DNA of 64,000 nt from Callorhinchus milii (lineage: Eukaryota). Each line of letters begins with the position of its first letter. Position 1 is the stretch's first letter. The notes under the pieces were generated by a model, which was not told where the DNA came from, searched no databases, and saw only the letters and a list, made by a program, of their open reading frames with translations. Below, one piece after another: positions 16,357 through 55,035 of the stretch. The DNA is taken from contig NW_024704743.1 of the NCBI RefSeq assembly GCF_018977255.1, positions 78,368,001 to 78,432,000 on the forward strand, written 5' to 3'. A program made the translations under genes and the position numbers.

Positions 16357-16672
16357 GGAGTCCTGTAGCTCAGTGGTTAGAGCACTCGCTTTGCAAGCGA
16401 GACATCTGGGTTCAATTCCAGGCAGGGCGAAACCTTAGACAAGTTTCCTTTTCCACACACCTAATAATAAACCCTCCAAAAAACAAAACAATAATAAATT
16501 GGTCATTTTCAATCCACGACTGTTTGTGGGACACTGCTGTACGCAATTGGCTGCCGCATTTTGCCCACAAATATACAGTCAATTCATTTTACAGCATATT
16601 CTGTGAAGTGCTTTGAGATGTCTCAAAGACGTGAAAAGTGCTATATCAAATGCAAGCATTATGATTATTATT
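16357..16672 (+). mobile_element. tRNA-Ala-like-headed SINE (short subfamily)
   Basis: ggagtcctgtagctcagtggttagagc (A box)...ggttcaattcc (B box); (TTA)n tail. Confidence 0.88.
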
Positions 16673-18394: not shown

Positions 18395-18400
18395 TTTATT
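18395..18400 (-). terminator. Candidate poly(A) signal of the collagen gene
   Basis: AATAAA ~36 nt after the stop codon; other hexamers lie further downstream, so usage is unknown. Confidence 0.3.
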
Positions 18401-18436: not shown

Positions 18437-18633
18437 TTAATAACCCGGCCCTTTCAAGAGTCCTTGTTGAGCCTGAAGGGCAGCTGCATGAATTCCACAG
18501 TCTCTGGCTTCACAAATCCCAGGAATCCCTGGATTACCAGGCAATCCTAGCTGGCCAGGAGCCCCAGTGTACCCCACTGGGCCCCGTGGACCTGGCTTTC
18601 CTTCTTTGTCAACACCAGGATACCCAGGATACC
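18437..18633 (-). CDS. Collagen exon 29, end of COL1 and NC1 (...[30 protein letters not shown])
   Basis: Second imperfection (GVDKEG), C-x4-C FACIT signature, stop TAA. Confidence 0.95.
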
Positions 18634-21600
18634 CTACAGGACACAGAAAGATAAAGTAGCTTTGAAATAGGGGTCACCTGAGCAGTACATTTCTCATTTG
18701 TTCAACCCAGGCAAACAAAGAAAGTGCTTGAGTTAAGAGAATATATGAAATCGGTGTCTCTCATGAGGATCTATCAACACATGAAGTTTAATTTGCCTTT
18801 TAACCTTCTCACCATCCAGTTATATATTCAACCACAAGTTCAATTCAAACATACTGCTCCCCCTTAGTAGCATTGTTTTGAAATGAGGTTTTGTGGAGGT
18901 CTGAATGCTTTCCATGGTGTCTCCTGTTCCCAGATATAAAATATTGTCTGAGGAGAAAGTACAGCTCTATTCTGAATTTTAATTATATTAAGTTATGGTG
19001 GCTGTGAAACAGCCTTAAACAGCAGTTCTGTTCCTGGGAAGAAGGTACCCAGAAGGGGAGAAAATCTATCCTATGGTATGGTCACGACTGGTCATGGAAA
19101 TCTTATGTCTACACATACGTTTAAATGAATGGGGGAAAATTCATATCTTGGAAATTCTTTAATGTCAGGAATGTATGTGTGCATAAGGGTGTCTGTCTAG
19201 TATGTGTGTGTGTGTATGTATGTATGTATTTGAGCGAGCGAGCGAGTAATTGTATATAAATGTTTAAATGGATGGTGCAATTATACTAAAATAGATGGTA
19301 CTATCTTCCTGAAAACATGTTTAGAAAACCTTTCATTGGTTTACGAGCATGTGAAACAATGATCAAAACTCATCTTTATTCATCACACAAAACTCATCAC
19401 TTATGTATGTGATATTCTGATGATGACAATGAAGCAAACGACTTCTGTCTCTCCTCCCTCTGGGCAAGAAAAGAGTGTTTGCCATTAAATCATTAAGCCA
19501 ATCTTTCTTTCATTCTGATCGAACATGAAGCCCTGAAATTGACTTGTTTGACTTTGAGCATATCAAGCTACCTACCTCTAGGGCCTTGAAACCCTTCTGG
19601 ACCAGGAAGACCAACTCCCTGAGCTCCCTTTTCACCCTTGTCACCTTGATCTCCTATAAAATGATAAAAATATGGTTCTTTAAACATCACCAAAGATAGT
19701 TCTAGACAGGAAATCTTTTTAAGTTAAGCACCAACCTGAATAAATATTACCTTTAGCACCAGGAGCTCCTTGTGATCCAGCAAATCCAATTCTACCCCTT
19801 GGGCCACGTTCACCCTCCAATCCATCAAGACCAGGTTTACCCTTTCAAAAAATTATTATTTTTAAAGAAAATAAAACAAAATATTCTTAAAATCGCCATA
19901 TTTTTAAGAACAACTAACTTGGGTATGTGTATTTTCCGCATCAACTTTAAATTTAAAGCTGCAATTTATGATTTAGCCTGAAGCATTTCAGAAAATAAGG
20001 CCAATAAACAAAAGAAAAGAATCAGCCCACGATGTCCTGGAGACACCACTGTTTTTTACAGTTTTTCCAAAAACTCAATAAAGAGAAAGCCAAGGTGAGA
20101 GAGACACTGCTCATCATAATTATAAAGCATAAAAATATATAATCATATCAAATATAAATAGGGAAATAAAACAACTAATCCAATTTTTGGTCAACATTGG
20201 TTGATCTTTGATCAATATAGAGTAATAAATAGTGACTTACTTGCTCTCCTGGTTTCCCTGGCAACCCAGAAGGACCAGGAGGTCCCATCAGTGTTACATT
20301 GTTGGTTGGACAAGCTGTCATACATGTCCGTCTGATTGCTGATGCATAGATTGCTATCTGCTCATTTATCACACTTTTACATAACTCATATACTTGTTCA
20401 TCAGGCATTCCTGGACCCTGGTGGTAACACAAAAATCTTTTAAACAGTTGATCCAAAAAATTGATGATTTTACCACGCTATAACTGAACATAGAACTTCT
20501 TCCACCCTATATCTATTACTGGAAAGCAAGGTAATATTGCTTTGCAATGCAGAGCAGAGAATCATAGACTGTACAGAAACAGGTCATTTCGGCCATCAAG
20601 CTCCTACTCCTCATCAGATTATCAGGTGTTCTTAAAAATATAGCAATTGTGCAACCATCTCTAACAATAGTAAAAAATCGTCCTTTTTTGAAGAATTGAG
20701 AAAGAAGCCTGAATCGATTCATACTTATTGTGTTTATAAAACATTGAGGTGAATCAAAGTATTGCTAAAACCACCTCCTGAAGAATTCCACCTATCTTTG
20801 GAATAAGCAACTCCACTGGCTTCCCATCACACAGAGGATCCTGGTCCTCATCTTCAAAGCCTTCAATGGCTTTACTCCCCCCTACTCCTTTGACATGCTA
20901 ACGCCCTACCAACTTGCCCACTCCGTCAGCTTCACGTCCCCTGGCTCGCCCACCCCACCATTCAGCCACTCTGCCCTACCCTCTGGAACTCAATCCCTCA
21001 GTCCATCCACCTCGTCCCCTCCCTTGCCTCCTTCAAGTCCCATCTCAAGACCCTCCTCCTTGACCATGCCTTAGATCACCCTCCTTCCCCCCCTGCCCTC
21101 CACCCTCCCCAATCCCAAACCGCAGCTTGGGTCCGAAACACAGATTATCCAGCACCTTGGAATGTCCTCCTGAATAGTGCTAATGGGATCTTTAATGTCT
21201 CCCTGAAAAGAGAGATAGGATCTTGGTTTAACTTGACACCTGAAGGATGACACCTCCAACAATGCACCCCTCCCGCAGCACTGTACTGGAGTATCAGTTC
21301 AAAATCCCAACATTAGGTTTGAACCCACTGACTGAAAGGGGAGCGTGCTACCAACTGAGCCAGGCTGACACCTGAGAAGTAATATTTGGGGATTGTTTGA
21401 ACATACCTGAGAGCCCTCAGATCCCGGTTCTCCTGCTGGCCCAGGTTCACCCGACTCTCCCATGGAACCAGGAAAACCACGTGGTCCAGGGATTCCAGGA
21501 ACGCCTCTTCTGCCATCTATTCCAAACAAACCAGGGGTCCCACGCTGTCCTTGCTACATAAATGGCATTAAGTTAAAAACCAACAAAATTATTTGCATAT

Positions 21601-24600
21601 CAATTACCGTTCTGACATTCAAATATAAAACATTATTATTTTATCTAATGAAGCAAAAGTGTGGCGCAGTCATTTTCTTTGTGTTTAATGGAATATGCTT
21701 AAAGAGAACAGAAAGTATGGCAAAGCAATTTCCAGTAAAGCAACTTCAATATCTCAATTCCAAATATTGTGCTGGTGTGATGAAATTACTGAGCAGCCCT
21801 GCTATTGATATCCACTCAAGGTGATAAGGTCTATTAACATGTGCAGGAAACTGTCTCAATCTCTCTTTGATCATTTTCAAATTTTGTCATCCTTTTTGGA
21901 ATGTTTGCTGCCTAAATGGAGTCCTGTAGCGTATTGGTTAGAGCATTCGCCTCGCAAGCAGGTTCAATTCGGAGACAAGGCGAAATATTAGGCAAGTTTC
22001 CTTACTCCACACGCCTCTGTTTACCTAGCAGTAAGTAGGAACCCGATTATTAGTCGATTGGCGGATCGCTTTCCCAGGGGTAATAATCCCTACGAAAATA
22101 AATAAAACATTTTTAAAAATTTAGTCAGTCAATCCACGACTGTTTTTGGAACACTGCTGTGTAGAATTGGTTGCCACGTTTCAGCCACAAAATATAGTCA
22201 AGTCACTTTACAAATGTAATTTTGCTGTTTTTGTTTATAGTATATTCTGTGAAGCGCTTTGAGACGTCTCAATGACGTGATAAGGCACTATATCAAATGC
22301 AACAGTTATTATTATTATTATCTCAACTGTTTCTCCTCAGTTTTCTCCAGTTCTTCATGTTCTTCAGAGGAAAATTTTTATTCAATTTCCATTACATTCA
22401 AATCATTTTTCTATTGCCTCTTCATATAGTATAACTTAATGAATCACAGGAATACAACAAACATATGGATAAACAAAGCCCTGCTGCCCTTTTGATCTCA
22501 TCCTTCCAGAATAGCCTTCCTACAATCTTGCTATTACCGCTTAAAGCTGATTCTTAAATAGTTCCAGTGGCCTCAATTGCCCTTCCTGGTATCTCATCCT
22601 GACTATTGATTGATCCACTGAAATACTTTCTGGGCTCTGTCCTAAAATCAGCTTCACAACCATTACCTTGTGTCCTTTTGTTCTACTACCTTGATGTATC
22701 TGACATTTTTGTTCTGGAAGTATAACCATGAATTATTTTAGTTGGTAAGAATTTATCTAGTTCCTTTTTGAAAACTTTTTATAGTTTCTTTTTCCACTAC
22801 CTATGCTGGTTGTTTTCTCTTCACTATCACATTTTTCTTTTTCTTAAAAAAAGGTATTTCTTCTGTTATGTTCTTATGCTCTCTTTTGCCCTTATTTTGA
22901 AGGTATGACTAATTTAATGTATGTCCTTTATTTCACTTATAGTCCAACTCTTAATACAGTCAAACTAGTTGCCAATGAATATTTTAACTGAAATGGGATT
23001 TCACTAAAAGGTGAATTATACTTGTTTTATATTCATAAATGCCCTTTGCATTTAAATAAAAAGTAACAGTGCCATGTATACAGTGTAGAAATATTCTTGT
23101 TAAATACTTAGGCAAGAGATTCTCCATTTATTAATAATAATCCGTGTTTTTGATGTGGTGCCTTTCATGTCTGGAGGATGTTTGAAAGCGCTTCAGAGGA
23201 TATCTTGTAAAGTGGCGTGACTGTATTTGTAGCCAAACACGGCAGCCAATTTGTGCAGCAAATTCCAAAAATAGCCATGAATTGAAAGACCAATTTTATT
23301 TTGGGAGATTGTTGGTCAGAACACCAGGAGAAATTCCCTTCTCTGCCACTGGATCTTTAATGCCCACCTCAACAGGCTGATGGGACCTCAATTTAATGTC
23401 TCATCTGAAGAATGGCACTTCCAGCATTGTAACTCGCTCTCCCCACCCCCAGCACTGCACTGGAGTATCAGCTTAGACTATGTGAGTTCAAAGACCCTGT
23501 CTTAGGTCTTAAACCTACAACATTCTGACTTAAAGGCTAGAGTGCTACCAACCGAGCCAGGCTGACACATATAGACTGACAAATAATGTAAATAATGTGC
23601 ATTATTTATTTTGTATCTAATGGAATTTGTTTCAAAAAATTACAAACCTGGCCTTCATCACCTATGTCACCTTCGTCACCCTACATAGAGGAAAAAAAAG
23701 AGATGACATGTGGGGATATTTGTGAAAAAACACTGGCATTTGATTCAAGACTGAAACATATGAATACCTGAGACCCTTGTTTGCCTTCTAAACCAACTTT
23801 GCCGGTCTCACCCTAGAAAAAGATTTGAATTGTAAATTAGCATTTTTACAAATAACAAATATCTTCACCTGATCTCAACTTACACAAAATAACAACAATA
23901 ATTTGTATTTATATAACGTCCTTCACACGGGTAGTGTCTCGGAGCGCTTAAATATGATTATGAAAGCTATATAATCATCCTTACATTTGACATAAAGTGC
24001 TCTGAGATGCTACCCTGCATAAGTGCAAGCTGTTGTTGTACAGTGCCTTTTACGTCAGAGAGACGTCCTAGATCGCTTCACAGGATATACTGAGAGCCAG
24101 TGGAGGGGATCGGTTGGGGACAAGGAAGGGGGTTCATGATACCCTAATCACTTTGACCTCAGTAAATTTCATTGAGTCTGACACGAAACAAAGGCAGAGA
24201 AATATTGGGAGGTGGCAGAAGGGTGGAGCTGCTCACAGATGGCACTTCTTATAGGCTTTGAGGTCACAATGTTAGTCGTCTGATGACCCCAGATCCCTCG
24301 GCTCAATTTAGCCAAGTCAGCCAAATCTGTTTCAGATTTCACGTTGCAACTACAAAGTCACAAAAGATATTGCTGTATATTTTGTGTGCATAGTTTAAAG
24401 GGCCCTCAAACGTGATCTGCCTTAGTGCTCCTGGATCCTGAATCTGGTGTGGAGTATGAATACAGGCAGAGTCTAGTTAGGCTAAATGGCCTGTTCCCGT
24501 GTGTAACTTTCTATGTAAAAAGCTTCAATTAAAAATAATTAAAATAAACATTTAGATAGTTGGGTGACATTTGCTGTACTTTAATTGAAATATTGATCCA

Positions 24601-27600
24601 AATGAGGCACAACAAGTGAATTAAAGAAGTACTGCATTCAGTGAAAAAAGTAATGGATAAACAGTTTTTGGGGATAACAGTCATGTGATATTTTTGTCCT
24701 TGTCATTGCACACTGCACACTAACAAAGGGTCACGTGTCATGTGAGTTTACAACTTCAGGTGGAAGGATTGCTTTCATTTGATAATAATATCATGAGACC
24801 TATATGTGTAATTTAACCTCACCTTAACCTTTCAATTTTATTGAGCCACTGAGACAGGAGCTTACAAAGAAGTGTACTGTGTAATTTCTTATATGGTTTC
24901 CCTTGTTGACCCGCTTATTGTATATTGCTGAAGAAATGCTCACCTTTTGACCATCGGGACCAGTTTCACCTTGTGGACCCTATTACAAAGCAAACACAAC
25001 GTGTAGTAAAATATATTTTTGGAAGTCAAGTTTACAAAAAAAACATTGGCATGGTTTTGTTGTGAAATCTACTCACAGGTAAACCTTTTATTCCTTGAGC
25101 ACCTGGCTTTCCTGGTATTCCAGGTTCCCCTGCATTGCCTTTAGGTCCCTGTAGTCAAACAAAAAAAAATGTGTGATTCTCAGACATTTCCCCGATAATC
25201 CCTCAAAAAAAATTTGGTCACTCAATGCACGACTGTTTGTGGTGTGCAATTAGCTGCCATGTTTCACCCACAACGTTAAGTCACTTTACAGTATATTCTT
25301 GAAGCGCTTTGAGTCATCTAGAAGACATGATAAGGCGCTATATCAAATACAAAGATTATTTAAAAGGGCCAATTGAGGTTAAGTTAAATCATATTTGAAA
25401 TAAAAAAACCTTTAAAAATGGCACTGTTTATCTAATTTATACAAATAATGATCCTTTCATTTGATACAATTCCTGATGGTGTCTTTCGCAGGGTTTTCTG
25501 TGAAGTGTAGTAACTGTATTTGTAGGTGATTGCGGCAGCAAATTTGCACACACCAATTTCCTACAACCAGCCACGAAGTGAATAGCTAATTTTATTTGGG
25601 AGATTCTTGACCAGGTGACCCTCCTCTTTTCAAATAGTGCCATGGTATCTCTAACATCTACCCCTGACAATGCAGCATTCTCCAAGTACTGCATTAATGT
25701 GTCATACTAGACTACGACTTCAAAGTCCCGATTTGGGGCCCACACTCTTCTGACACTGAAATTCCTACCATCTGAGTTACGCTGACACCGGTTCATACTT
25801 TTCAGTTGTTAGCTAAATATGACAGCTTTGAAAAATAAAAACATTTCAGAATTTATCTAATTCGGTTTTCAAACCAATCCTTAGCCTGGTACATCCTTCC
25901 CTTGTCTGTTTTTACACTGTGGAGCAATAAGATGCAAGATTACACTTGACATCTTCCATGCCCTTGTAGCAGGCACCAGAGACAATTGAAGAATAGGGTC
26001 TGCCAGGCCACTCTCTTCTACCTTCTTGTGGCCAGTTTCAGAACAACAAATAACAACAGAAGCCTGCAAACAAGTTGCCAACAATTCTCTTAGCCAGGGG
26101 TGCATTCATTTAAAAACAAAGTCTTCTTCTGGAAAGAAGTTAAAAAGAGTAGCAAGCATGGTGACTGTATTTTGCTGCTCCACCTCATCCTTGATGTCAC
26201 TCACCATCCTCCATTTTATATATAATATATATCTACATAATATATAAAATATATTATGTACTTTTTTGTCTATTATAATCTATTTTATAAGAAAGGAAAA
26301 GTTCAATTCACAGAATTCTTCATGATCTTCCAATGGGTAGATAGCATGCATGAAATTCTTATTTCGGTTTGGATACTCTTAACCATGGTGATAAGTTTCC
26401 ACCTGCATCAGACACCTGGCTGACAAGTAGTCAAGAGTAACCTTTCACTATCAAAACGCAAGGATATTGCGTTTGGAAAGAAGCAATCTGATCGGTGTTA
26501 AGATTTCACTTTTACAACATTATTCATTGAATTCAAGGTAAATAAACTTGAGTGACAGGCAACCCTGGGAGGAGTTCTCACAACTTTTTGGTTTGGTGCT
26601 CAATACGCTACTATTTGAGTGATCCACACTACATCTGCAGTTTTTTTAATAGGCTGATATCCCAGTCTCTGTAAGAGGGGAAAGAGATACTGGTGATAGT
26701 ACTCTTGAGATCAGAATGGTAAGCAAAATGATTCAAGAATTACTTTACAGAATTCCCTCAAAATATGTTTCTATTTCCTTCTGAAGATACTCTATAATGT
26801 ATTTTTGCTGTTGTTATTTCTCATTTACCCTATCTTTGTCAGTATGAGAAATAAAATAAATAGTAGCGACTTCATGTCATTTAACAGAACAGAAATTACA
26901 GAAGTGAAATTATTACTTCACCAAATACAAAGAGCAAGATCTCATATTTTTCTCCTCCCATGACCATTTCCCTTCTCTTGTGCATTTATAAAGAATCTTG
27001 GTTAGGGTTTTCTGATGTATTATAGATTGGGAGTGATTTTCTGAGCAATGTGGATCCTCTGGTTTCTTTATTTCATGGAAAATTAAGAAATGGTACATTA
27101 ATATAGTTCCCCTTCTGCTGAAATAATTGCAAGAGGGCTCTCCAATGAGAGTAAAATTTTTCATGTGACTTTCCACGTGTAGGTGGCATGCATACGTGAT
27201 ATTCTCAGTTTGGTTTGGATACTCCTAAGCAGGGTGATGCATTTCTGTATGTGTCAGACACCAGGCTGACCAAAATATACACTTCCAGAATACTGATTAC
27301 CTACTATCATCTTCCCATAATAGTAAACAGTTTCTTAAACAAGTCCAGCATTCTGGCCTCAACTACACTTCCTCCAGTTGTTAATTATCCTCTGTGTGAA
27401 CAATAATTTTGTGGTTTCTTCAAGCAGTTTATCACTGGACTCCCAAGTGTACGCATGAGTCACTGAATTTTATTTTGTCAGTCACTGCATAAAGAAATCA
27501 AGAAATGCATAGAATCAAGTCATTCCATTTCACTTCTGGGGGAGGCAGAAAGATGTCCTTCTCCATTTCATTCTGTTTGAGTTGTGCATCTTTCTGAAAT

Positions 27601-30600
27601 AATCTGAAAGCAAGATTGATGACAGTGAAGTCCAGAAACAGGACCATCCTAGCCTTCCACTAGAGCAGGGCAAGTGGAGGTGAAAGGTTTCCAGTAGAGT
27701 ACACATACAGTTACAAAATAAATATGGTAGAAACCAAACTTGTGGAGGAGTTCATGACCCATTCGCACTCCTCTGTGAAATGATCCTGCATAATGGGGGA
27801 TGAATATAAAATTGGAAAATTATTTCATAAATGAATGTAAAAGCTACATTTTCTCTTCCAGCTCAGTAACTTAAATTGGAAAATAACAAGAAACTTACTT
27901 GCAAACCACGCAGCCCTTGTGGCCCTCTTGGCCCTGGGTCCCCTCTGTTTCCCTACATAGGTATTAACATAATATTAATATTTACATGGTTAAATAGAAG
28001 CCATCCTTCATTAGGTAAATTATTCACATGCATGGTCTAAGAGTAACAATGAATTAATAGCATAACAAATTAGTGTGGAATAAAAAGTACCTTTGCTCCT
28101 ATTTGTCCTGTTTCACCTGCTAAACCTGGAACTCCCAGTAGACCCTGAAGTCAGATCACATAATATGTTTTGAACACTTTCCATCAGAACTTTCTTTGTA
28201 ACAAAAGATGATAAAATGATTTAAAACATTTTACTTAATTAATTTCAATTTACATCTTTGCCTGGCTCCCCATCTATACCAGAGATTCCACTGAGTCCAA
28301 CAGCACCCTGAAGGGAAGAGAGATCTAAAATTAGATTTAAATCCACAATATACAACTATTAATGATAACAGTAAAGAAATGTCTGTTTGATTTCACCTTT
28401 CTGCCCTGTGGTCCCCTCTGTCCTATTAATCCTGGATATCCCTTCAACAGGAATGGGAAATAAAAGACAAACAGTAAAATGATGTTGCATTTACCAATAA
28501 AATTAATGTCATAAGAGACACATCACCAATGATAGCACACAATAAAATCTAATATATACACTCACCACAACTATGGTCCAAAACTGCTATTGCTAATCCA
28601 TAGTTCATTGTCTAAAATCCTACTACTAAATAGTTAATAATCAATAAGAAAGTAATACATTCTGCATACAAATTAACCCCATAGTTTTTCTTTAATATCC
28701 TTGAGAGGCCACAAGTAAAATCATTGTTTAGCTTATTTTCATATGGCAATATGTCTAGTGTTAGAGGGATGAATTCTAGGATTGACTGAACAAGCTAAGG
28801 TTATTCAGCTTTGAAACTAAACATCTCAGAGAAGATGTTCTAGGGGTACATAAGATGCTAAAAGGATATAAATAAATATAAAATAATAAATCCAATACTT
28901 TCAGATATACCAAAAAATACATATAATAATAATTTGGTCACTCAATCCACGACTATGTGTGGACACTGCTGTGTGCAAATGGCTGCCATGTTTCGCCAAA
29001 ATATACAGTCAATTCACTTTACAGTATATTCTGTGAAGGGCTTTGAGACATCTCAAAGATATGATAAGGCACTATGTCAACTGGAAGGATTATTATTATT
29101 ATTACTACCAAGCAATAATAACTTGCATTTATTTAGCACCTTTCAAATAATAGATCAACTTAAAGTGCTTGAAGCAGCAATAAAAGAGGCCATAAGCTTC
29201 GGGTTATGAAGGTTAATTTTGGAATCAATACATTTCTGTACACAGACGGCATTCAAAAGCTGAAATGGTGGGGATGGGAGTTTATTCCAAGACAATGTAG
29301 TGATTTAAGACATGGCGTGATGCCAAAATGGGAAGACAGTAGAATTGGTACTCTGGCAAAAGATGAAAGTAGAGATGGGCCAAACCAGCATCTACATCCA
29401 AGCCTTCCTTATAATTTTCCAATGTTTTTGTTTTAAAACAAAATCACATTATTAACTTCTTCAGGAAAATTAATATCTTCAGATAATTAACATTTTGAAC
29501 TAAATCTATCATAAGAAACCAGCCTGAACTCTGCAAACGTACCATATAGCCGTGGTCTCCTGCATCTCCTGAGAATCCAAGCTCACCAGGGAAGCCCTGT
29601 CATATTCGCATATACATAGAAAAGATAATAATCCAGTGTGAACAATTATTTTGTGCAGATTGCATTATTAAGAATCCTGTTCAAACATTAAGCAGAACAA
29701 TAATAAATACGTAGTAAACCTTTGGTCCCATGGCACCAGGAGATCCAATTGCACCTGGTTTGCCTCGAGAGCCCTGTTATAAAGAGCAAATAAAATTGAT
29801 TTAATCATGGCAATGTCTTCTTACTGCCCACAGCAATAAGTGAAAACTGTGGAGTTTTTAATAAGTAAACATAGTAACTTTTTATTTTCGCCTGCAGCTG
29901 TTGTTGATTATCGGCCACTCGCTCCCCGAAGAAACACTTACCTTTTCACCCGAGGGACCGGGTCTGCCTTCTTCACCAACTATTCCGATATCACCCTGAG
30001 AATAAATGCAACATTTATTGCAATCTGTCTGAAACATTGCAACATCAAGACACAGCAATAAAATAGTGCACACTGGAATACTTACATTTTCACCTTTGGA
30101 TCCTGGTTCCCCTCGTGGGCCTGGAAGTCCAACTGAACCCTACAGTTAGGAGTTGTTAAAATGATTATCTGAACGTAGTACACAGTTCACTGTTTAAATT
30201 TTGGTTGTGGATGACAGACTCACAAGCAAGACTTGAGGCAGGGATTCTTCCACTGCAAACACAAAGCTTTAATGGGTAGAATGGCTCTAACTGGACAAAC
30301 AGTAGGACACTTTGTCAAAGTGAAAATTGTTCTCTGCTCTTCCCAAAATAACTCTCTTATAGATCACATGCAGGACTACTTTTAAAACAAAAGCCAATTT
30401 ATTTTATTAATAATAATAATCCTTGCATTTTATGTAAGGAGAATGTCAGGAGAATGTCTCAAAGCACTTCACAGGATTTGTTGTAAAATTTGTTTTGTAA
30501 AGTGGAGTGACTGTGTTTTGTAGGCTAACCAACAGCGAATTTATGCACAGCAGTGTTCCACAAATAGCCATGAAGTGAATAACCAATTTTATTCGTGTGA

Positions 30601-36600: not shown

Positions 36601-39600
36601 TGACGTTCAACTGCAGGAAATTTGCGCTCATCCAGTTCCTGATGTCCGACAGACAAGCTCATGACAGAAACTAATTCAGGTAAAAAGAGAGCAGTAAATC
36701 CTCCAAAAAAAAGGTGCAATTCATGAAGAAATTAAAAGAAAATTAAAGCAAATGTTAGTCTCTTATTCTAATAAATAATAACTTGCATTGATATAAGGAA
36801 ACACAACAAATGGGAAAGAAAATATATAATAGGAAGATTTTCCTTTCTCAGGCATTTTGCACAGTACTTACAATTCCTGGAATTTCACAGCACCTTTCAT
36901 CAGCTGCTTTATTTGGATTACTATAAATCTTGAACTGTTGTAGATCCACCTGAAGCAGAAACAATATTGTAGGGTGAATGGAGGTACATTTCAGTGGGTT
37001 AGTGAACTATTGCTTCAAATCAAGGTTTCATATCCAGACCAAACTGATGGCATGAAAATCTCCTCTCCCAGACATCTGTGAATCAAATGGTTATGGCCAG
37101 TCTCAATCTGGCTCTTTGTGAGTGTGAAAACTAAAGAAGAAGCTGTTTTATTGATTCATTGCACTGTTATTATCATTAAATTTGTCATTTCACACATTTC
37201 CTCCAATGCCACTCAGCTCTCTAGGATGTTACCCTGATGGAGGTTGTGAGCTAAAATAATGTCACCTCTACATTTACATTATATTACTGCAGACCCACCT
37301 GATTTTCTGAGGCATCTCCCCCAAGCAGACCCTGCTTACTTCTCCTCAAGAGGGGGCATTTTTGATATGATACAAATTTTGTCAGGCTCCAAAGAATAAA
37401 GGGTTGAGTGGAAACAGTAAGAATCCTACCCCTTGCTGAACCAACCGAGCTACCAGAATAGCTCTCCTATATATTTAACAGTTAATAAAATGAATAGACT
37501 TCATATACGGAAAAAGACTTACTAGTAGTGTAGAATCAGCCTTTGCTGCTGTAGCTAGAGAGGTAAATCCATCAGTAGTAATAGATCCATACTGTCTAAT
37601 GGGGGCTGTGCCAACCTGCTGACAGTCAACAAGCAAAGTTAACTGGTTCCTTTTGGCGCTTAATGACAGCTTGTGCCAGGCCCCATCAAACAGCTGTCCT
37701 ATGTTCTCAAAGATGGTGATCTCCTCTCCCACAGCTGCCACATTGTAGACTTCAACTGCATTCGTCTCTCCATACAGGCGAAGTCGGAGCTGCTCATCCC
37801 CGTTTCTATCGGTCACTTCCCATAGATTCCACACCATCTCAGGAGTGTCTTCTCTCATTCTGAAGGTCGAGACCAATGAGAATTCTTTGGGGAATCCATA
37901 TGGATGAACAAATCTGTAAAATGTAAATAATATTTTTGCTGAACAATTGAAAACATATTTTAAAGGTGAATGTGAAGCTTTTTCAAACTTGTCAATGAAA
38001 TAATAAATTCCATTCTGGTGGCACACTGATATGGCACTATACAAATGTAATTTGTTGTTGTCTCATACCTCCCACTCCTCCCCTCTTCCTGTCACTCTAC
38101 GTACTGCCTCATACCTGGTCCCATTGCTCTACCCGCTGCCTCATACCTCCCGTTCTGCCTCTCTTTATGTTGCTCTTCACGTTGCTTCATGCCTCATACC
38201 AATCTCTTGAGAGGCAGCATGGAGAGCGACAGGAAGAGAGCCAGAGTGGGAAGCATGAAGCAGCTTAGAGAGCAACAAGAAAGTGGCTTCACTAATGACA
38301 TCCCGCCCAGCAACCACAATTGTAAACCCTGGCTTGGCCCCTGGATGAGAATGCAGGATTTGGTGCGGGTGAGGGTACAGCCAGTGGAGTTTTGTATTAG
38401 CTGGATTTAGGAATATATTTAAAAAGTCTAGTCAGGAGATAACAAAGACATGAATGAGGGTTTCTACAGATTTGATGTGAGATAGGATAAAGATGGATAA
38501 TGCAGAGGTTGAAGAAATGTAGTATTGGTTTGGGAATGAATGTCAGCTGAAGATCAAACTGAATATCAATGTTGCACACTCGTTTGTTGAGTTTGAAGGA
38601 AGCCAAGGAGGTCAAACCTGGAGGTGAGAAGGCAAATGATGGAAATACAGAGATCTGTTCTCTTTTTTGTGGAAATTACAGTCCAACTGTAGTTGCTAAG
38701 TCGATGTTTCCAGTTTCATTATACATTTTCTCAACAGCACCAAGCATTGTACCATCATTGTTCTCATGGCAGTAATAAAATGAGCTCAACGTTTTTGCTT
38801 CTAGTTAAAAAGGTGTGTGTTCAAACTCTATGTTGAAGCTTGATGGCTCCTAATGCTGATAGGCACTCCAGTGCAATGTTGGTGCAACACAATAGTGTAA
38901 GCGGTGCCATCCTTTCGATAAGATGTTAAACCAGGGTCACATCTGTTGTTCAAGTGTATGTTAAAAATCCCAGAATATTATTCAAAATGAGAAGGATGTT
39001 TCTCCCAATGTTCTGGTCGACAATCCTTCAGATAAATTGTTCATTCCCTTCACAGGGACCTTGCTTTGTTTAAAATGGCTCCTGGATTATCTACAAACAC
39101 ATGGTAACTACATTTCACAGGAATTCACCATGGAGTGTGATGTCTTGCCAGGCTGTATAAAATACAAGAATTATTAAAATGTTGCTCCTGATTTCTTGTA
39201 AGCAATGTATGCATTTTAAGTAGGTAATTGGGAAACACTCATCTTAAAAACTGGTAAATAAAATAATGTTAGTGAATGTTGGAAACTAAACATTGGAGAA
39301 TGTGCTGTGCACTAAATCCTGTGAAGTCTTTCTGATATAAGAGGTCCTATGCTAAATAGAAGGGAATGAATAAAAAAAGCAAACACACTATATTACAAAT
39401 CTCTCAACCTTTAAATGATAGCCCTTTCATACATCACATACCTTGTTTCTTTCCCAATCTGTATACTTCTTTCTAGGCGATAGGCTGTTAGGCCTATTTT
39501 GGATCCTTCCACTACATTAATTCCTGGTATGCTCAATATTTTTAATGTATCTAGCACATCAGTAACTGGAACAGAGGGTAAATGTGTCTATTAACAAAAT

Positions 39601-42600
39601 CACGATTCTCTTTTAAATTCCATCAACCAGTATTTTAATGTAAACAAAATTGACAGATGGATATTATTTAGTACTCTGAGTATATCACTGTGCGCAATTG
39701 CCTACCGCACTTCATCCACAAAATGTGCAGTTAATTCACTTTACAGTATATTCTGTGAAGCGCTTTGATACACCTCAAACATTATATGCCGCTACATCAA
39801 ATGCAAGGATAATTATTATTATTATATTGAAATATCAGGCAGAACACAGCTTATAGTTAGGAAATGCACAATTGTTATGGAAGGTCTTGATTTTGGATGT
39901 CTAAATCCTTTGATGGCTGCAAGGTTATTTCAGTTTTTAAAGACAGTCTTAAAATATAACATAATAACATCTATTATAAATAACAAAAAAAATCTTAATA
40001 TAGTCTGTTCTGGGAATAAAAGATAATTCAATATTTTAAATGCATCATTCACTGTTCTAATCAGCATTTTCTGGTACTGAACAGTGAACAATGTCTGCAA
40101 TGAGCAATGGGCAGTACTTACAGGCTGTGAGCAAGAAGCTGTTGCAAATTCAAATGAAAACTAACAAAAAAAAGCAACAATCATAATGATCAGTTAAAAA
40201 TATGATATATGAGTGACGATGATGCAATGAGCTAAGTGTTAATGGTGAGTATGAATGAATGATAATACAGTGTATCGCTTTTAAGGTGAAAGTGAACTCG
40301 GTTTTCTTTTACTGTAAACTTTAAATAGTTTACTCACAAATACAATCCTCTGGCAAGTGTTCTGAACCACATGTTGCTGTGCTATGAAGAAATCCAGCTT
40401 GGAACATTGCACCTGGACAGCTCCAATCCTGCAGTGTATTTTAGGTAAGGTGATATCTCAGTGAACTGACTGCACATGGATCAGTTTTCGCTTTGTAATG
40501 TTTGACAGAATTGTGCCTCACAATACGTGTTTTTATATATAAATATATGGAAATATTATAATATATAGAAATAAACGGTTCTAATTTTGAAATTCCATAT
40601 TTATGTATTTTTTAGGTTAGAAATGTGTTTGCTTTTCCTGAGTACTGTGAATGTTCAGTTTCAAGTCCTTTGGGGCTTATTTAACTTTCTGATTATCAAT
40701 AAATTACTACCTCTTCCCATCTAATGTTGGCATTTAAAAACACATTTTGTGTTTTTTTTCATATTTTGACATTATTCCATCCAAAACAAGAGTTCAGTTG
40801 TCCTTAGGGATTTTCCACAGCAGTTTGTCAGGACCAACAGGAGAATGTATCAGATTCATCACCTATTCCTGCAATATTCACAAGTCTTTTGTAATCCTAG
40901 GAACTTCAGAATGTTTGAACATTGTTGTTAGAGTTGAAACTGTCAGAAATAATTTGTGATCGAACTGATTGTGGCAATGTGCCCTTCAATGTGAATCCTG
41001 GGTTTTAGTAAAGTAGTTCAAATCAATGTGTAAAGGCATATTGTTCCAAATTTTTCAAAGAACAAAAAATTATAGGTTCAAAGGTTTTTAAAATCAGGTG
41101 TAAATGTTTATGTTTCCACACAAGCAAGTATAGAGCATCACTGGCAATTTAAAATGAACATTAGTCTTAATTGATGAGAAAAATCAAAGGGTTGAAATTC
41201 AACCATTAAGTCTCTACTACAATTATTTAATCAGTTTAACATTCCAGATGTTGTTCAATGGTGGTCATCTATTCTGAATTGGTCTTAAATAAGTTTCAAT
41301 GTTAGCTCAAGAATAGTTTAAATATGAAGTGCATTTTCTTTTCGATGTGCCAAACAGATTTGAGCATTAAGAAATATATCTTCACTCCTCCTGAAGAGTA
41401 GCAAAGAGAAGATGGTGTAGAAGAGCAATGTGTTGATGGTCATGTATGTTGAACTGCATAATGATGAGGGGCCCATGGGTTCCTAAACCAAGTCATATTA
41501 TCACAAGGCAAGGTGAGCATTGGTGAAGTGTCAAAATTTGGTGGGTGGGTTTGTCTTGGGCTTTTCTTGATAGGCCTAGCAATTGGATCAAGAGGCAACT
41601 GGTAGTGCACGACTCACAGATTATCCATCTGTCTCTTAATGAGAATGGTGTGTGGCACAAGACACAAAGTCAAATAAAATTACCAAAGGGAGAACAGAAG
41701 AGAAACATGGGATCATTGAAATTATGCCTTTCTCCTGCTCCTTGTCCCTCCATATCTAAAAGCTGTTGATTACAGAACACATTAAAATATTAGGCGACTG
41801 AATTATTTTCGGCTGCAAGGTGTGTTTGGTTTGAAGACCAAGGTTCATTCCAACGCTTCCTTCTTCATTTTACTAACGCAAACACATATTTTCTGTTTTA
41901 TTGCATGCACTGGTGGCAGCCCCTGTCAGCCTTGTCACGTACCTTCCTTCTGTCCCACATCAGGGACTGGCAGCAACTCCTCCTCCACCTGCGGCATTTC
42001 TCTGGAATAGCTGAATGGGAATATTCTTGTGCTGGTGATGACCTCTTTGGCAGTAGTATAAGAAACTGTCGGGGTAGTGTAAGGATAGCCTTTATTTGTG
42101 CTCATCTCTACCGCGGGCCCAGTGGAACCAGTTTCTGAAATGTCTGGATATCCAGAAGCGATGGCGTAAACGTCATCAGGATCTGGTACTAACATTTCAG
42201 GATAAAGTCCTGATCCACTTTCAGTAATATCTGGGATATGTGTTGCTGTGATTACAAAGTCATCGCCAGACATTTCTTCCTCAAAGGGAACGCTTCCTGA
42301 CTCGATGAATTCTGATGGCTCTCTGTGTAAGTCTCCAGCTACTGACCCTTCAAAGGCATGCTTGTCACCATCTCCTAAAGGAAAAATAGTTAACTTCAGC
42401 AGCAACCTTGAGTAAAGCTGGGTTTGAGGAGTTACAGGGCATTTAATGAGGATATTTAAAATGGAGTTCAACCAGAGGCAACTGTATTGAGGCCGGAAGT
42501 CTCAGGAACTTCACCCCGATGGTTTGTTAAAGTGTGAAAGGCCAAGAGAGTTCATGCTGGCCACTGTTCACTCCAACAATACAAATTAAGCAGATAGTGA

Positions 42601-45600
42601 TTATAACTGAATTAGCCTAGTACTCTACATACAAAGGTGACGATTTGGGTGGCAACATTGCCTGCCAGGGGAAGCGCTGTGTAAAGCTTCACTGCCGATA
42701 TGCAGTAGTGATTTTCAATTGATGCAACAGGCTGGGATTCAAATGCAATAGCTCTTGTGTTCCTAGTAGCGGTCTAGCATAAGTGCTAGCAACTCATGCG
42801 ATGTTACTCCAATCTGTGAGTCCTGTAAAAGGCTGGCAGGCCGGATTCCAGGATTACAGAATATAGGCTCTGGTAATGAGTAGGTTAATCTTATCCAATC
42901 CAATGGTCTTTATGGTTTTGGATTGACTGCACGTAGTCCAGAAGCAAGAGATGAGGCTTCTCTGCAGTCCAAACAGCAATGTAATATTCCATTACAGAAT
43001 AATCTTTGTACAACATTGATGCCAAAGGAGACCAGCAACATTAAGGTTTCTCAAAATCTCCAACTTTTCTGTCTGTTTTTCCAGTTGTCATTTTCAATAA
43101 ACGTTTAACATATTCACACAGCCTCTAATGGTTTACCAATTGTCCACATTTTGATTTAGATACTTGTTTTTACTCCAAGTTTGAATATTATGAATATTAC
43201 ATTGGTCATTATATTAAAGATTTCAGTACCAAACTATACCTCATATTTTTATAGTAATCTCAAAGAAAAATAACTGCATGATGACCTACTACTGTGACAA
43301 TAAATCCCTTCAGCTATCAATCTAAACCTGCAGGACACAAATCTAATGATATTTGGCATTAGAAAAATCCCCTTTTTATCCTTACCACATTCCACTCCCA
43401 TCTGTATGATTTTGCTCAAACGTTTTAAAAATATATTTTAAAAATAGAAAACATACTCAGTAATATGTTTTTGATAGGAAAAATGTTAATGAAGGATCTA
43501 ATTATTCATAAGATCTACACATCACTTTCAAAATATATTACATCTTCTGTCATTTCTCTAACTTCTATTACGCAGGAAGCTGTTTGATATAGACAAACAG
43601 AATAAATGTTTCCCTTGAAATTCACATGTATTATCAGGATGTTTGCACTGTGGACTGGTTAGTTATGAGAAGCCCAGCCAACCCAAGACAGCAATCTAAA
43701 ATGAGCGTAAAAGCATTTCTGAATTATACTGTACAGGATATGTGGGTGTACTTGTGAATTTTTCACAAGTTCAGCTCAATGGAAAGAAATGAGAAAATGA
43801 GATGTTGAAAAATAAATGAACACAGACAACCTCAGTACTGTACCACAAAAATCTTCAACATTGACCATCTACCAGAGAATGCCTTCAGGCAGACTGCAAG
43901 TATTTTTCCACCATCTGTCTTCCAGTTTCTTAATGGACCAATATGATGCAACAGTCTTGATGTTAAGCAATATGTGTGTTTGATATAGACTGAGCTAGAA
44001 ACTTAATAAAATTATAAAACAATATCTCCTACAATAAACTGCAAAACATCAGAAAAATATCATTAAATATAATGCAAAACACTTTCTATGCATTTAACAT
44101 GCTCTATATTATCTCCACGTGATCATAAAACAAATATCAATACATTTGTTATAGCTTTACCTGATTTAGCAAAATAGAAAACATTTAGAGAAAATCTGGA
44201 AATTGGGCTGTTAGTTGCATGCTGCAGGCATTAAATTGAACACAGTTAAATTTAAGTACTTAAAATCTTTAGGCTTAATATTTAAATCAATTGTTTTGTA
44301 ACCACCTAATTGTGACATTAGCAGAAAGATAAATTCCGTCATTCGCCTCCACATGCATTTGAGTGGAAAACAAAGGTATCATTGATATTAGGAAGACAGG
44401 GTTGTCAAAAGTAGCCACATTTCTGCAAAATAGATCACCAAAATAGTGTGTTAATGCTTTATATGTGTTAGATAATAAAAATCTTTCAGGTTTCAGACAT
44501 GGAAAAGTTGCCCCAGTAATGATTGGGTATGTGCTCAGGTGATCAATCTCAAGTGATTTCGAATTACTATATTTTAATAGAAATAAAATGTAATTCCAGG
44601 GAACAATAAAAACAAATAGGACACATAAGAGAAACAACGAACTTTAAATTAATTGATAATAAATGTAAGCTGTTCAATCTTTACTCACCAGAAACATAGC
44701 CGGAATACTCTTCACAACTAACATGAAGTGAATGCAGAACAATGAGGAAATAAATAATTAGACACAGTTCACGTATCCTCCCAGGTATGGTAAAAATCTG
44801 CAAGTTTGGGTTAAAAACGATATAAGAATTAGATAATTGGTTTGACACACTAAATTATAATATTGTGCTTCCATCTCTGGGACATGGTTGCATTTTGTAA
44901 TTTGCCCAACTTCCACAAGCCTGGTCAGTGAATCATCCAGCCTTTCTTTCAATCTAGCATGACTACATTCAATTATAATATTGAAATCAACTGATCAATA
45001 ATATATCTTAGTTAATGACAACGAATCAAACAGCTTCTTTGAAGGGTGTCTGGATAATATGGATGAAATAATAACCATTGGCAATCAACAAGGCGCTGAA
45101 CAAACAGTTGGTTCAAAAACATCCATAATTTACGTGTTCAGCACATATATCTTTTGTGTGTAATTGAATGGATTGGCATAATTGATCACAATTACAGGTG
45201 TTTTGTATTGTTTTAAGATAAAGGAAGAGCTAGGTTTGAGATTGATTCTTGCACAAATTTTCTTTTAAAGAGCAAAGTGCTCTTCCATCCTCAAGTCATT
45301 TGTGAACTAATCATTTTCTCTATTGACGAGAGATATTTTAATTATACATTTCTTGATGCCAGATTGAGAATTATTACAGTTGTAAATTATTTATCATCAT
45401 AAAAACCTTTTTTTAAACCTATGAATAATATGAAATCCTACATTACTGAGTTTCTTAAGGGATGCAACAGAAAGAAAATTGTGAAATTCTTCCTGACTAT
45501 GAATGCAATCAAGTGAAGCTGAGGACAGCAATCTAACATTATTCAATCTATTGCATTTGACAGGTAGCATTCCTTTGCTCAGCAGTGGATCAAAGTGTAG

Positions 45601-51600: not shown

Positions 51601-51672
51601 AAGAAATCTCAAGACTTGGCACTGTTAAATATCAGTAAATGTCATTCTTACCTTTGCTTTTGAAGCTGCCAT
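18437..51672 (-). CDS. Complete FACIT collagen gene (COL21A1/COL9A1-related; Ser-Gly-rich N-terminal domain + TSPN + COL2 + COL1), 29 coding exons, 2829 nt, ~942 aa
   Basis: 29 GT-AG exons join in one open frame from ATG (51672) to TAA (18437). Contains Gly-X-Y exons of 54/45/72/36 nt, a TSPN domain, the FACIT C-x4-C motif (CEARDC) and a KGP-type C-terminus. Confidence 0.9.
19576..19653 (-). CDS. Collagen exon 28 with GX imperfection ([26 protein letters not shown])
   Basis: 78 nt, phase 1->1; FACIT COL1 imperfection. Confidence 0.93.
19751..19841 (-). CDS. Collagen exon 27 ([30 protein letters not shown])
   Basis: 91 nt, phase 0->1. Confidence 0.92.
20241..20417 (-). CDS. Collagen exon 26, NC2 and start of COL1 ([48 protein letters not shown]...)
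   Basis: 177 nt; amphipathic FACIT NC2 helix with Cys. Confidence 0.93.
20815..21150 (+). mobile_element. L2 LINE 3' fragment
   Basis: ctccactggcttcccatc...ctctggaactc...tccttcaagtcccatctcaagacc. Confidence 0.75.
21170..21372 (-). mobile_element. Deu-type SINE 5' part, just downstream of collagen exon 25
   Basis: ggtgtcagcctggctcagttggtagcac head on the minus strand. Confidence 0.75.
21407..21553 (-). CDS. Collagen exon 25, end of COL2 ([20 protein letters not shown]...GSEGSQ)
   Basis: 147-nt Gly-X-Y exon, canonical sites. Confidence 0.95.
21918..22322 (+). mobile_element. tRNA-headed SINE (long subfamily with extra central segment)
   Basis: Same head and tail as 16357 plus gcctctgtttacctagcagtaagtagg...gatcgctttcccagggg. 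Confidence 0.85.
23130..23568 (-). mobile_element. Full-length Deu-type SINE
   Basis: Head, core and tail all present. Confidence 0.82.
23648..23680 (-). CDS. Collagen exon 24 ([11 protein letters not shown])
   Basis: 33-nt exon; the split triplet GQ|Q is completed by the next exon. Confidence 0.9.
23768..23812 (-). CDS. Collagen exon 23 ([15 protein letters not shown])
   Basis: 45-nt Gly-X-Y exon. Confidence 0.92.
24944..24979 (-). CDS. Collagen exon 22 ([12 protein letters not shown])
   Basis: 36-nt Gly-X-Y exon. Confidence 0.92.
25077..25148 (-). CDS. Collagen exon 21 ([24 protein letters not shown])
   Basis: 72-nt Gly-X-Y exon. Confidence 0.93.
25190..25790. mobile_element. SINE 3' half (+, 25190-25360) and degenerate Deu SINE (-, 25440-25790)
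   Basis: Shared tail motifs in opposite orientation. Confidence 0.7.
27899..27952 (-). CDS. Collagen exon 20 ([18 protein letters not shown])
   Basis: 54-nt Gly-X-Y exon. Confidence 0.93.
28091..28144 (-). CDS. Collagen exon 19 ([18 protein letters not shown])
   Basis: 54-nt Gly-X-Y exon. Confidence 0.93.
28254..28307 (-). CDS. Collagen exon 18 ([18 protein letters not shown])
   Basis: 54-nt Gly-X-Y exon. Confidence 0.93.
28397..28441 (-). CDS. Collagen exon 17 ([15 protein letters not shown])
   Basis: 45-nt Gly-X-Y exon; AAG acceptor. Confidence 0.9.
28925..29105 (+). mobile_element. SINE 3' half
   Basis: ggtcactcaatccacgact...acagtcaattcactttacagtatattctgtgaag...(TTA)n. Confidence 0.8.
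29543..29596 (-). CDS. Collagen exon 16 ([18 protein letters not shown])
   Basis: 54-nt Gly-X-Y exon. Confidence 0.93.
29720..29773 (-). CDS. Collagen exon 15 ([18 protein letters not shown])
   Basis: 54-nt Gly-X-Y exon. Confidence 0.93.
29942..29995 (-). CDS. Collagen exon 14 ([18 protein letters not shown])
   Basis: 54-nt Gly-X-Y exon. Confidence 0.93.
30086..30139 (-). CDS. Collagen exon 13 ([18 protein letters not shown])
   Basis: 54-nt Gly-X-Y exon. Confidence 0.93.
30722..31040 (-). mobile_element. Young tRNA-headed SINE (short subfamily)
   Basis: Nearly identical to the 53262 and 54311 copies. Confidence 0.9.
31853..32008. repeat. Imperfect inverted repeat / MITE-like palindrome
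   Basis: gcttctgggt...gacatcacttcctgtgcat pairs with atgtgcaggaaatgatatc...acccagaaac. Confidence 0.65.
32732..32785 (-). CDS. Collagen exon 12 ([18 protein letters not shown])
   Basis: 54-nt Gly-X-Y exon. Confidence 0.93.
32891..32944 (-). CDS. Collagen exon 11 ([18 protein letters not shown])
   Basis: 54-nt Gly-X-Y exon. Confidence 0.93.
34288..34341 (-). CDS. Collagen exon 10 ([18 protein letters not shown])
   Basis: 54-nt Gly-X-Y exon. Confidence 0.93.
34665..34985. mobile_element. L2 3' end (+) abutting a CR1 3' end (-)
   Basis: Matches 14630-14810 and the reverse complement of 56750-56860. Confidence 0.75.
35004..35057 (-). CDS. Collagen exon 9 ([18 protein letters not shown])
   Basis: 54-nt Gly-X-Y exon, AG/GT. 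Confidence 0.93.
35157..35243 (-). CDS. Collagen exon 8, CxC linker and start of COL2 ([29 protein letters not shown])
   Basis: 87 nt, canonical sites, Gly-X-Y begins. Confidence 0.9.
35925..36657 (-). mobile_element. L2 LINE 3' fragment
   Basis: [16 protein letters not shown]...FDPQLSF...[10 protein letters not shown]...LIQNSAARI. Confidence 0.88.
36872..36949 (-). CDS. Collagen exon 7 ([26 protein letters not shown])
   Basis: End-of-TSPN CCEIP motif; 78 nt; canonical sites. Confidence 0.92.
37523..37913 (-). CDS. Collagen exon 6, TSPN/LamG core ([17 protein letters not shown]...WNLWEV...[11 protein letters not shown]...LLVDC)
   Basis: ORF 37475..38044 with characteristic TSPN motifs; 391 nt, phase 2->0. 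Confidence 0.95.
38770..39175 (+). mobile_element. Old degenerate Deu-type SINE
   Basis: ggtgccatcctttcgataagatgttaaacc...aaaatcccagaatattattcaaa core. Confidence 0.55.
39442..39565 (-). CDS. Collagen exon 5, TSPN N-part ([41 protein letters not shown])
   Basis: VxGS...AYRL motif typical of FACIT TSPN domains; canonical splice sites, phase 1->2. Confidence 0.9.
41684..41755 (-). CDS. Collagen exon 4 ([24 protein letters not shown])
   Basis: cttttag acceptor, gtaatt donor, 72 nt, phase 1->1. Confidence 0.7.
41943..42374 (-). CDS. Collagen exon 3, acidic Ser/Thr/Pro-rich Ser-Gly domain (432 nt)
   Basis: tttcctttag acceptor, G|gtacgt donor, open frame (ORF 41935..42471), phase 1->1. Confidence 0.85.
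44689..44797 (-). CDS. Collagen exon 2, signal peptide ([36 protein letters not shown])
   Basis: ttgcag acceptor, gtgagt donor, hydrophobic core, phase 0->1. Confidence 0.8.
46092..46885 (+). repeat. Unclassified ~790-bp interspersed repeat, copy A (collagen intron 1)
   Basis: Aligns block by block with the reverse complement of 52450-53238. Confidence 0.75.
47850..48455 (-). mobile_element. Deu SINE fragment joined to an L2 3' end
   Basis: SINE tail/core to ~48135, then L2 sequence matching 14450-14780. Confidence 0.75.
48660..49430 (-). mobile_element. Rearranged L2 LINE RT fragment
   Basis: [13 protein letters not shown]...[12 protein letters not shown] motifs and [12 protein letters not shown], frameshifted. 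Confidence 0.9.
50574..50642. repeat. (TA)n/(CA)n microsatellite
   Basis: Directly visible. Confidence 0.85.
51652..51672 (-). CDS. Collagen exon 1 coding part (MAASKAK)
   Basis: ataATGG start and AAG|gtaaga donor; phase 0 matches exon 2. Confidence 0.7.
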
Positions 51673-54625: not shown

Positions 54626-54980
54626 GTAATTGCAAGTGTCAGAGGAACATCCAGTCTACTCTGCAGTAATGCTCAAGTCAGTGCTAAGACTGAGGATTCC
54701 GAGGCTCAGACAGAGACTGTTGGTGCGTTAGTTATTGTAAAGCATATGATAGAGGCAACAGAGAATAAGAATGATACAGGCAGATTGTATACATTATTTG
54801 AAGCCCAAGATAAGATTACTGCCTTAGAATTGTGCCATGTATTCCAGTTGATGCTTGACAAGTTAATAGCCAGGTTTAAATACTACAAATTTAAAGAATA
54901 CTTGTTTGAGACAGTCATCACATTATATGCAAAACACTTTTTTCCATAACTTTTACTTCAGTTATCCATTCCATTGTACT

Positions 54981-55035
54981 TCATTTCCGTCGTTTATGAC
55001 TGTGATTCCGATCTTCATCTCGAGAGTGATGCTTC
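54981..55035 (-). CDS. SNRNP48: SNRNP48 last coding exon ([17 protein letters not shown])
   Basis: tttcag acceptor; HSHKRRK conserved; TGA stop. Confidence 0.9.

Follow-up and report, generated by a model that had tools for sequence, protein, structure and literature searches.

Fibril-associated collagens whose triple helices are interrupted (FACITs) bind fibril surfaces and form no fibrils themselves, and reviews count 28 vertebrate collagen types, eight of them FACITs, according to passages of PMC8172798. Here we describe a FACIT gene of Callorhinchus milii. It lies on the minus strand of a 64,000-nucleotide window (contig NW_024704743.1 of assembly GCF_018977255.1; G000:C2:78368001-78432000), to which positions refer unless a G000 coordinate is given. 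We use X1 for this gene and its orthologues, and X2 for its sister gene of the zmp:0000000760 type. X1 is probably a FACIT of an unnamed subfamily, without a von Willebrand factor A (vWA) domain, likely homotrimeric and with a predicted glycosaminoglycan-bearing arm. Its identity and history, as traced by trees, exon patterns and synteny, are very probably those set out below.

X1 resembles COL21A1 in its TSPN domain, CxC linker, two helical domains, 72-36-45-33-147 exons, cysteine pairs in NC2 and NC1, KGPxY-type end, and genome adjacency at both loci. It differs in having an acidic Ser-Gly arm instead of a vWA domain, a one-exon TSPN core and a 177-nt NC2 exon; it falls in a separate clade, and the genome has two COL21 genes besides. 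COL9A1 and col9a1c share with X1 a TSPN without vWA, the TSPN exon layout, and a similar COL1 and NC2 helix. X1 has two helices and no COL3, whereas the genome's COL9A1 has the extra exons; COL9A1 and col9a1c also have other NC2 exons, and a single clade with X1 is rejected. X2 shares the 3′ exon series, the NC2 motif and the position upstream of a COL21 gene, but its N-terminus in chondrichthyans is rich in Ser/Thr and mucin-like, the chimaera copy retains vWA, and teleosts possess the gene. FN3/vWA arrays of the XII/XIV/XX type are absent (Pfam gives collagen and LamG only in three full orthologues), as are the many helical domains of the XVI/XIX/XXII type and the 180-67 exons with which COL2/NC2 ends in the genome's XIX- and XXII-type genes. 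The alpha2(IX) chain, collagen XII and multiplexins XV/XVIII are collagen-proteoglycans with Ser-Gly sites in an acidic context; the predicted sites of X1 differ in lying N-terminal to TSPN in a two-helix FACIT.

The gene is a real, intact, spliced FACIT collagen gene. Exons joined by coordinate gave an open frame from the ATG at 51672 to the stop at 18437, with GT-AG at 27/27 introns. The whole gene (18437..51672, minus strand) comprises 28 coding exons that total 2757 nt and encode 918 aa, and is colinear with its orthologues; its residues 1-918 align with 1-910 of the catshark orthologue. A six-frame scan of the window for Gly-X-Y runs found collagen exons on the minus strand alone, between 35057 and 18512. 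The joined exons bore out the start, stop, strand, domain order and 333-aa COL2 of the initial annotation, and its two COL1 imperfections, CEARDC...KGPGY end, 72-36-45-33-147...78 exon series and upstream SNRNP48 were all verified. Its 29 exons and ~942 aa were re-derived as 28 and 918, and its acidic region of ~175 aa was re-measured as 153 aa. An open 72-nt stretch in intron 3 (41755-41684) fits the 24-aa difference between the models, and our guess is that it was the extra exon; it was rejected as a 29th exon, as contigs join exon 3 directly to exon 4. Two 72-nt candidates in intron 1 were rejected because they would lie ahead of the signal peptide. A 12-nt micro-exon between exons 6 and 7, present in some frog and turtle models, was not found in the window gene.

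Exon 5 was present in seven public runs, none recorded as RNA or with a tissue; their RNA status was guessed. Contigs of four of the 13 listed runs were compared with window positions 33100-43300. Those of two runs were spliced at junctions 3-4, 4-5, 6-7, 7-8 and 8-9, five of the six in this stretch, and a contig from a run of a second study was spliced at junction 4-5. The fourth run gave long unspliced pieces, with no exon 3-9 joint among the matches listed. The spliced contigs indicated that the locus is transcribed, as the initial annotation supposed, if the runs are RNA as guessed. An unnamed 875-aa orthologue of skate type was found on a 2,942-nt contig, indicating a full-length spliced form without vWA in a relative. 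Atlas searches returned generic collagen clusters only.

Exon 5 matched the genome at 17 places, which include separate COL9A1-, col9a1c-, COL21-, COL22-, COL19-, COL16- and COL12/14/20-type genes. The COL22-, COL19-, COL16- and COL12/14/20-type labels are those we take to apply. COL9A1 was labeled by the structure 2UUR, col9a1c by the primers in PMC10119692, and COL21A1 by a named Lates protein. In a careful TSPN tree of 45 rows, X1 (100/100), X2 (100/99), COL21 (100/100) and COL9A1 plus col9a1c (95/86) formed separate groups. X1, X2, lamprey S4RWH4 and the unnamed P0084 grouped at 92/90, and the same group had an SH-aLRT of 97 in a quick tree of 135 rows. The C-terminal tree recovered X1 (99/97) and X2 (98/97). 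Approximately unbiased (AU) tests, with 27 of the 45 rows, rejected X1 with COL9A1 (p=0.003) and, marginally, X1 with COL21 (p=0.043). X1 thus nested in neither gene, as had been proposed. The description as a COL21/COL9-family paralogue stood in part: X1 belongs to its own subfamily, whose sister position to COL21 was not rejected (p=0.25) and to COL9A1 was rejected (p=0.016).

The NC2 motif C-x18-C-x3-CP was present in 31/31 X1, 20/22 X2 and 3/3 lamprey-type proteins, and in 0/5 other FACITs of the genome. An NC2 search of the genome returned X1, X2 and one weak match with a stop, and nothing else. The 3′ exons of both X1 and X2 measure 72-36-45-33-147-177-91-78 nt. The corresponding sizes are 147-55-(183 to 201) in COL9A1, col9a1c and COL21A1, and 180-67 in genes of XIX and XXII type. 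The NC2 motif and the 177-91 exon pair are two independent marks of the subfamily. On these sequence comparisons, X1, X2 and the lamprey proteins form a FACIT subfamily of their own.

Database searches placed X1 in many vertebrates. Exon 5 as query retrieved 21 proteins among 385 candidates, a turtle TSPN query retrieved 20 among 950, and sturgeon, gharial and gecko came in addition from searching 1.84 billion representatives with a profile. Named sources were sharks, skates, rays, sturgeon, coelacanth, frogs, a caecilian, turtles, crocodilians and geckos, the sturgeon and coelacanth records both being partial. Over the whole length, X1 of the window shares 65% of residues with the catshark protein, 52% with that of turtle and 49% with those of frogs, and in the 45-row tree the window gene stood at the base of the chondrichthyan X1 orthologues. 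The initial annotation had seen an ancient paralogue kept in this lineage; it is kept, but it extends to reptiles, and among bony fish also to sturgeon. The poorly annotated fish orthologues it anticipated were found: X1 orthologues, including those of shark, ray, sturgeon and coelacanth, are nearly all labeled collagen IX-like, XXII-like or uncharacterised.

Among named matches of the protein and profile searches, teleosts, birds and mammals contributed no X1, and the teleost matches were X2. The same profile search reached a COL9A1 (P0081) near the human structure 2UUR, compared by eye, indicating that mammalian-type TSPN collagens were within its range. X1 was likely lost in mammals, an earlier claim that draws on the lack of mammalian X1 in the protein searches, no mammalian genome having been scanned, and on the presumed human gene order. 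Three Logan records (P0160, P0173 and P0242) hold X1-like TSPN fragments that share ~60% identity with the gharial sequence and depart from it where residues are conserved; one runs out of frame. They may represent a decaying X1 copy in some amniote.

X1 and X2 occupy matching blocks. That on C2, all on the minus strand, runs desmoplakin (best PDB match 1LM5), SNRNP48, X1, a second COL21-type gene (COL21b), BMP6, and the COL21b vWA exon begins 23 kb past the X1 stop. That on C3, all on the plus strand, runs plakin, X2, COL21A1 and a BMP5/6/7-type gene; we take the plakin and BMP there to be DST and BMP5. Each sister therefore stands directly upstream of a COL21 copy in the same orientation. 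Cross-species synteny came from two fused sturgeon gene models, P0202 (SNRNP48 and X1) and P0225 (X2, COL21 and BMP). A third plakin-BMP block on G000:C10 had no TSPN, vWA or collagen exon within 100 kb.

The matching plakin-collagen-COL21-BMP blocks point to tandem duplication followed by genome duplication. A FACIT with vWA and TSPN would have duplicated in tandem, giving the subfamily and COL21, before lampreys and gnathostomes split. The pair would then have been copied by genome duplication with its plakin and BMP neighbors, giving DSP-SNRNP48-X1-COL21b-BMP6 and plakin-X2-COL21A1-BMP. The vWA exon would afterwards have disappeared from X1, and in mammals X1, X2 and COL21b were all likely lost. 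The human orders are presumably DSP-SNRNP48-BMP6 and DST-COL21A1-BMP5, by which mammals would have kept one of the four collagens.

The loss of vWA was traced in relatives. vWA precedes TSPN in lamprey S4RWH0, in P0079 and in chimaera X2, and was found in 2/25 X2 records and 0/65 X1 records, where isoforms and fragments are counted too. When 264 kb were scanned in six frames with a vWA profile, the window showed no vWA-coding sequence and no remnant of one; the scan found only the exon of the neighboring gene (294 bits) with an overlapping partial match beside it, and everything else scored <=3.4 bits. The view that no vWA exon is hidden in the X1 introns was thus upheld. A cysteine near the TSPN end was absent in 16/16 X1 and present in 7/7 other FACITs of the genome; we assume from the collagen IX NC4 structure that its partner is the cysteine just before TSPN. 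It is also absent in shark and skate X2 and kept in the vWA-less X2 of teleosts and turtle, so the link with vWA loss is not strict. X2 has a Ser/Thr-rich, mucin-like exon, and its vWA, present in the chimaera, is absent in shark, skate, teleost and turtle models. Between them, P0079 and P0084 have a signal peptide, a brief Ser-Gly stretch of acidic character, vWA and TSPN, as well as the NC2 motif of the subfamily and a CEARDCG end identical to that of the window gene. They are possibly a cyclostome X1 that retains vWA.

The domain order of X1 is signal peptide, acidic arm, TSPN, CxC linker, COL2, NC2, COL1, NC1. All exons are on the minus strand. Exon 1 (51652..51672, 21 nt) holds the start codon, in agreement with the N-termini of orthologues. 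Exon 2 (44689..44797, 109 nt) encodes the signal peptide, with a hydrophobic core at aa 18-28 and a putative cleavage after ~aa 35. Exon 3 (41943..42374, 432 nt), which contigs join to exon 4, encodes the acidic Ser-Gly arm (aa 36-188, 153 aa, net charge -23, pI 4.05). TSPN (aa 189-385; Pfam LamG matches were under the cut-off) begins in exon 4 (39442..39565, 124 nt). Its laminin-G core is exon 5 (37523..37913, 391 nt; PDB 2UUR, E=2e-40), a single exon as in COL9A1, col9a1c and X2, and it ends in exon 6 (36872..36949, 78 nt) with a Cys-Cys, without the preceding cysteine of other FACITs. Exon 7 (35157..35243, 87 nt) holds the CxC linker and the start of COL2.

COL2 (aa 406-738) has 333 aa, 111 triplets without interruption. 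It occupies exons 8-24 (21407..35057), of eight 54-nt exons, one of 45, three of 54, then 72, 36, 45, 33 and 147 nt. Exons 8-16 start at 35057, 34341, 32944, 32785, 30139, 29995, 29773, 29596 and 28441, and exons 17-24 at 28307, 28144, 27952, 25148, 24979, 23812, 23680 and 21553. Two of its triplets are RGD (aa 444-446 and 612-614), and Gly-Pro-Pro occurs in 0/111.

Exon 25 (20241..20417, 177 nt) encodes the 44-aa NC2, a predicted trimerising coiled coil with C-x18-C-x3-CP, and the start of COL1. A short C-terminal helix with two imperfections is a FACIT feature, and the COL1 of X1 (111 aa) has both. It continues through exon 26 (19751..19841, 91 nt, identical in size in X2) and exon 27 (19576..19653, 78 nt), which contains the first imperfection. 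Exon 28 (18437..18633, 197 nt coding) contains the second, the CEARDC cysteine pair, the 25-aa NC1 ending CEARDC...KGPGY, and the stop. The COL1 runs of 60, 18 and 30 aa are identical in col9a1c and X2. In FACITs a cysteine pair at the COL1/NC1 junction is spaced by four residues, and X1 has C894-x4-C899 there. Disulfides at the FACIT pair are noted in PMC7034273. The closest polyadenylation-signal hexamer downstream of the stop, a candidate, is at 18395..18400.

Ser-Gly with acidic neighbors is the consensus for glycosaminoglycan attachment. Ser-Gly-Asp/Glu was present in 30/30 X1 arms, where shuffled sequence would give 5.7; most of the sites align at Ser43 or Ser79, amid divergent sequence, and P0079 also has such sites. 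Ser43 and Ser79 are therefore predicted glycosaminoglycan sites.

NC2 trimerises type IX and XIX collagens, according to parts of PMC7824840 and PMC7034273. A homotrimer model of three exon-25 copies scored 0.35, against 0.01 for the best control; at least 85% of contacts agreed between runs, pLDDT was at least 68, and the contacts followed a helical repeat and the Gly-X-Y tail. The mark of 0.32, calibrated on two copies only, was reached by 17/29 eukaryote homo-pairs and 0/30 single chains. By analogy with other FACITs, after secretion the NC2 coiled coil would align three chains and the helix would zip in both directions. The COL1/NC1 cysteines would lock the C-terminus, COL1 and COL2 would attach to the fibril surface, and TSPN and the polyanionic arm would point outward, spacing and hydrating fibrils. 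Whether X1 is such a homotrimeric fibril-surface collagen, with a predicted glycosaminoglycan-bearing polyanionic arm, is evenly balanced in our judgment.

With the same history, the chain could instead work only as a heterotrimer with COL21b and/or X2, in the manner of collagen IX. The X-COL21 pair is adjacent and co-oriented at both loci and in sturgeon, the COL1 lengths are near-identical (60-18-30 in X1 and X2 against 57-18-30 in COL21A1), and the collagen IX NC2 selects three different chains, as passages of PMC7824840 state. However, the homotrimer model scored just above the mark (0.35 against 0.01 for the best control). Teleost matches included COL21b-type and X2 proteins and no X1, and mammals presumably retain COL21A1 alone, which suggests that the partners were lost independently. 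COL21 is also listed as a homotrimer in reviews (PMC13467375). We consider an obligate heterotrimer unlikely.

An origin as an extra collagen IX chain, a COL9A1 paralogue without COL3 that replaces alpha1 in type IX trimers, would fit most database names ("collagen IX-like"), the single ~390-nt TSPN core exon and the best solved matches, COL9A1 NC4 and COL9A2 NC2 (E=0.004). It is improbable, as the AU tests reject both X1 (p=0.003) and the subfamily (p=0.016) with COL9A1, COL9A1 and a col9a1c-type gene exist separately in the genome, the NC2 exon pattern and motif differ, and the vWA-bearing relatives of X1 are unlike collagen IX. X1 as col9a1c itself was rejected: P0073, the protein matched by the col9a1c primers of PMC10119692, falls with another gene of the genome, at G000:C2:2.94 Mb.

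Slightly less probable still is that X1 represents no separate subfamily but a COL21 copy which, following tandem duplication in gnathostomes, diverged and lost its vWA. A COL21-type vWA exon begins 23 kb downstream of X1, both have the two-helix layout, a subfamily sister to COL21 was not rejected (p=0.25), and rejection of X1 with COL21 was marginal (p=0.043). TSPN identity, however, is ~30% to COL21 exons against 40% to X2, the TSPN core is split over more exons in COL21 genes, and the subfamily NC2 motif is already present in lamprey. That the frame is a product of choosing exons by hand, or that the gene is a silent relic, is hardly credible: no protein record of exactly X1 was returned for Callorhinchus milii, but the frame is open across 28 canonical exons, spliced contigs exist, and identity is 65% to catshark and 52% to turtle.

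Several points weigh against an intact, homotrimeric X1 in a subfamily of its own. The X1+X2 group was not starred in the careful TSPN tree (92/90), the C-terminal tree does not resolve the relation of X1 to X2, and the rejection of X1 with COL21 is marginal (p=0.043, 27/45 rows). That the runs are RNA is a guess, two of the three supporting runs share one sample, the second study backs junction 4-5 alone, and read-based splice support is confined to the stretch from exon 3 to exon 9. Some of the 65 X1 records are isoforms or fragments. Because the 30 arms share descent, 30/30 does not represent 30 independent events. The trimer score of 0.35 is barely above the mark of 0.32, the model includes 15 Gly-X-Y residues that would trimerise regardless, and the score may come from likeness to the solved collagen IX NC2.

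Other features were found in and around the window. The upstream neighbor, the 3′ part of SNRNP48 (54980..64000), is not collagen, and its U11-48K zinc finger lies just outside the window. COL21b (G000:C2:78292700-78363200, minus) follows the window gene in tandem, with ~4.8 kb between its vWA exon and window base 1. Its vWA and TSPN exons are open, 15 distinct Gly-X-Y exons were listed, and the product ends in GPNF; together with teleost proteins it makes up a separate clade. Neither the first exon nor the 55-nt NC2 exon of COL21b was found, and window 1-18000 may hold the former. X2 (G000:C3:7156782-7186450) is annotated as collagen alpha-1(XXI) (XP_007892258.2), Callorhinchus protein P0063 matches G000:C3 exon by exon, and the true COL21A1 follows ~39 kb after it. 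At G000:C2:2939555-2954400 a col9a1c-type gene stands tail-to-tail with a COL22-type gene, mirrored at G000:C3:4017639-4071900 by COL9A1 tail-to-tail with a COL19-type gene. The chimaera col9a1c-type copy has a much shorter COL2; col9a1c is tied to zebrafish fin actinotrichia, and its presence here indicates that it is older than bony fish. A JGI/IMG record (P0054, 1960 aa), a collagen of FACIT type, carries six TSPN domains in tandem and ends in KGP. The window also contains a 38-bp minisatellite of ~20 copies (3588-4373), grading into related CT-rich units, and, by eye, apparent LINE reverse-transcriptase remnants and recurring SINE-like repeats (35900-36680, 48100-49500, 14200-14780, 400-1500).

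No account of the X1 gene or subfamily was found in a literature search that left most subscription journals and supplements outside; matrisome supplementary tables could list X1 or X2 genes. A search for the name zmp:0000000760 was swamped by 1,554 unrelated matches and gave no X2 paper. X1 is conserved and annotated in databases, although under the wrong name, and the FACIT subfamily to which it belongs is apparently undescribed. Its significance is limited: paralogues are often lost, databases hold the gene models already, and the function is a prediction. The list of collagen types was drawn from mammals, and this locus adds a two-member FACIT subfamily and a second COL21 gene. The subfamily has been hidden under "collagen IX-like" and "collagen XXI" labels, and one RefSeq "COL21A1" is X2. 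X1, without the vWA exon and the TSPN cysteine, is a clean case of domain loss. As Xenopus has X1 and teleosts have X2, both genes are amenable to knockout now. It is possible, and we suggest it tentatively, that the subfamily is a further vertebrate collagen type in existence since before the lamprey split, and that X1 is a collagen-proteoglycan whose arm replaced vWA and may shape cartilage, notochord or fin-fiber matrices, which mammals would have given up on losing X1, X2 and COL21b.

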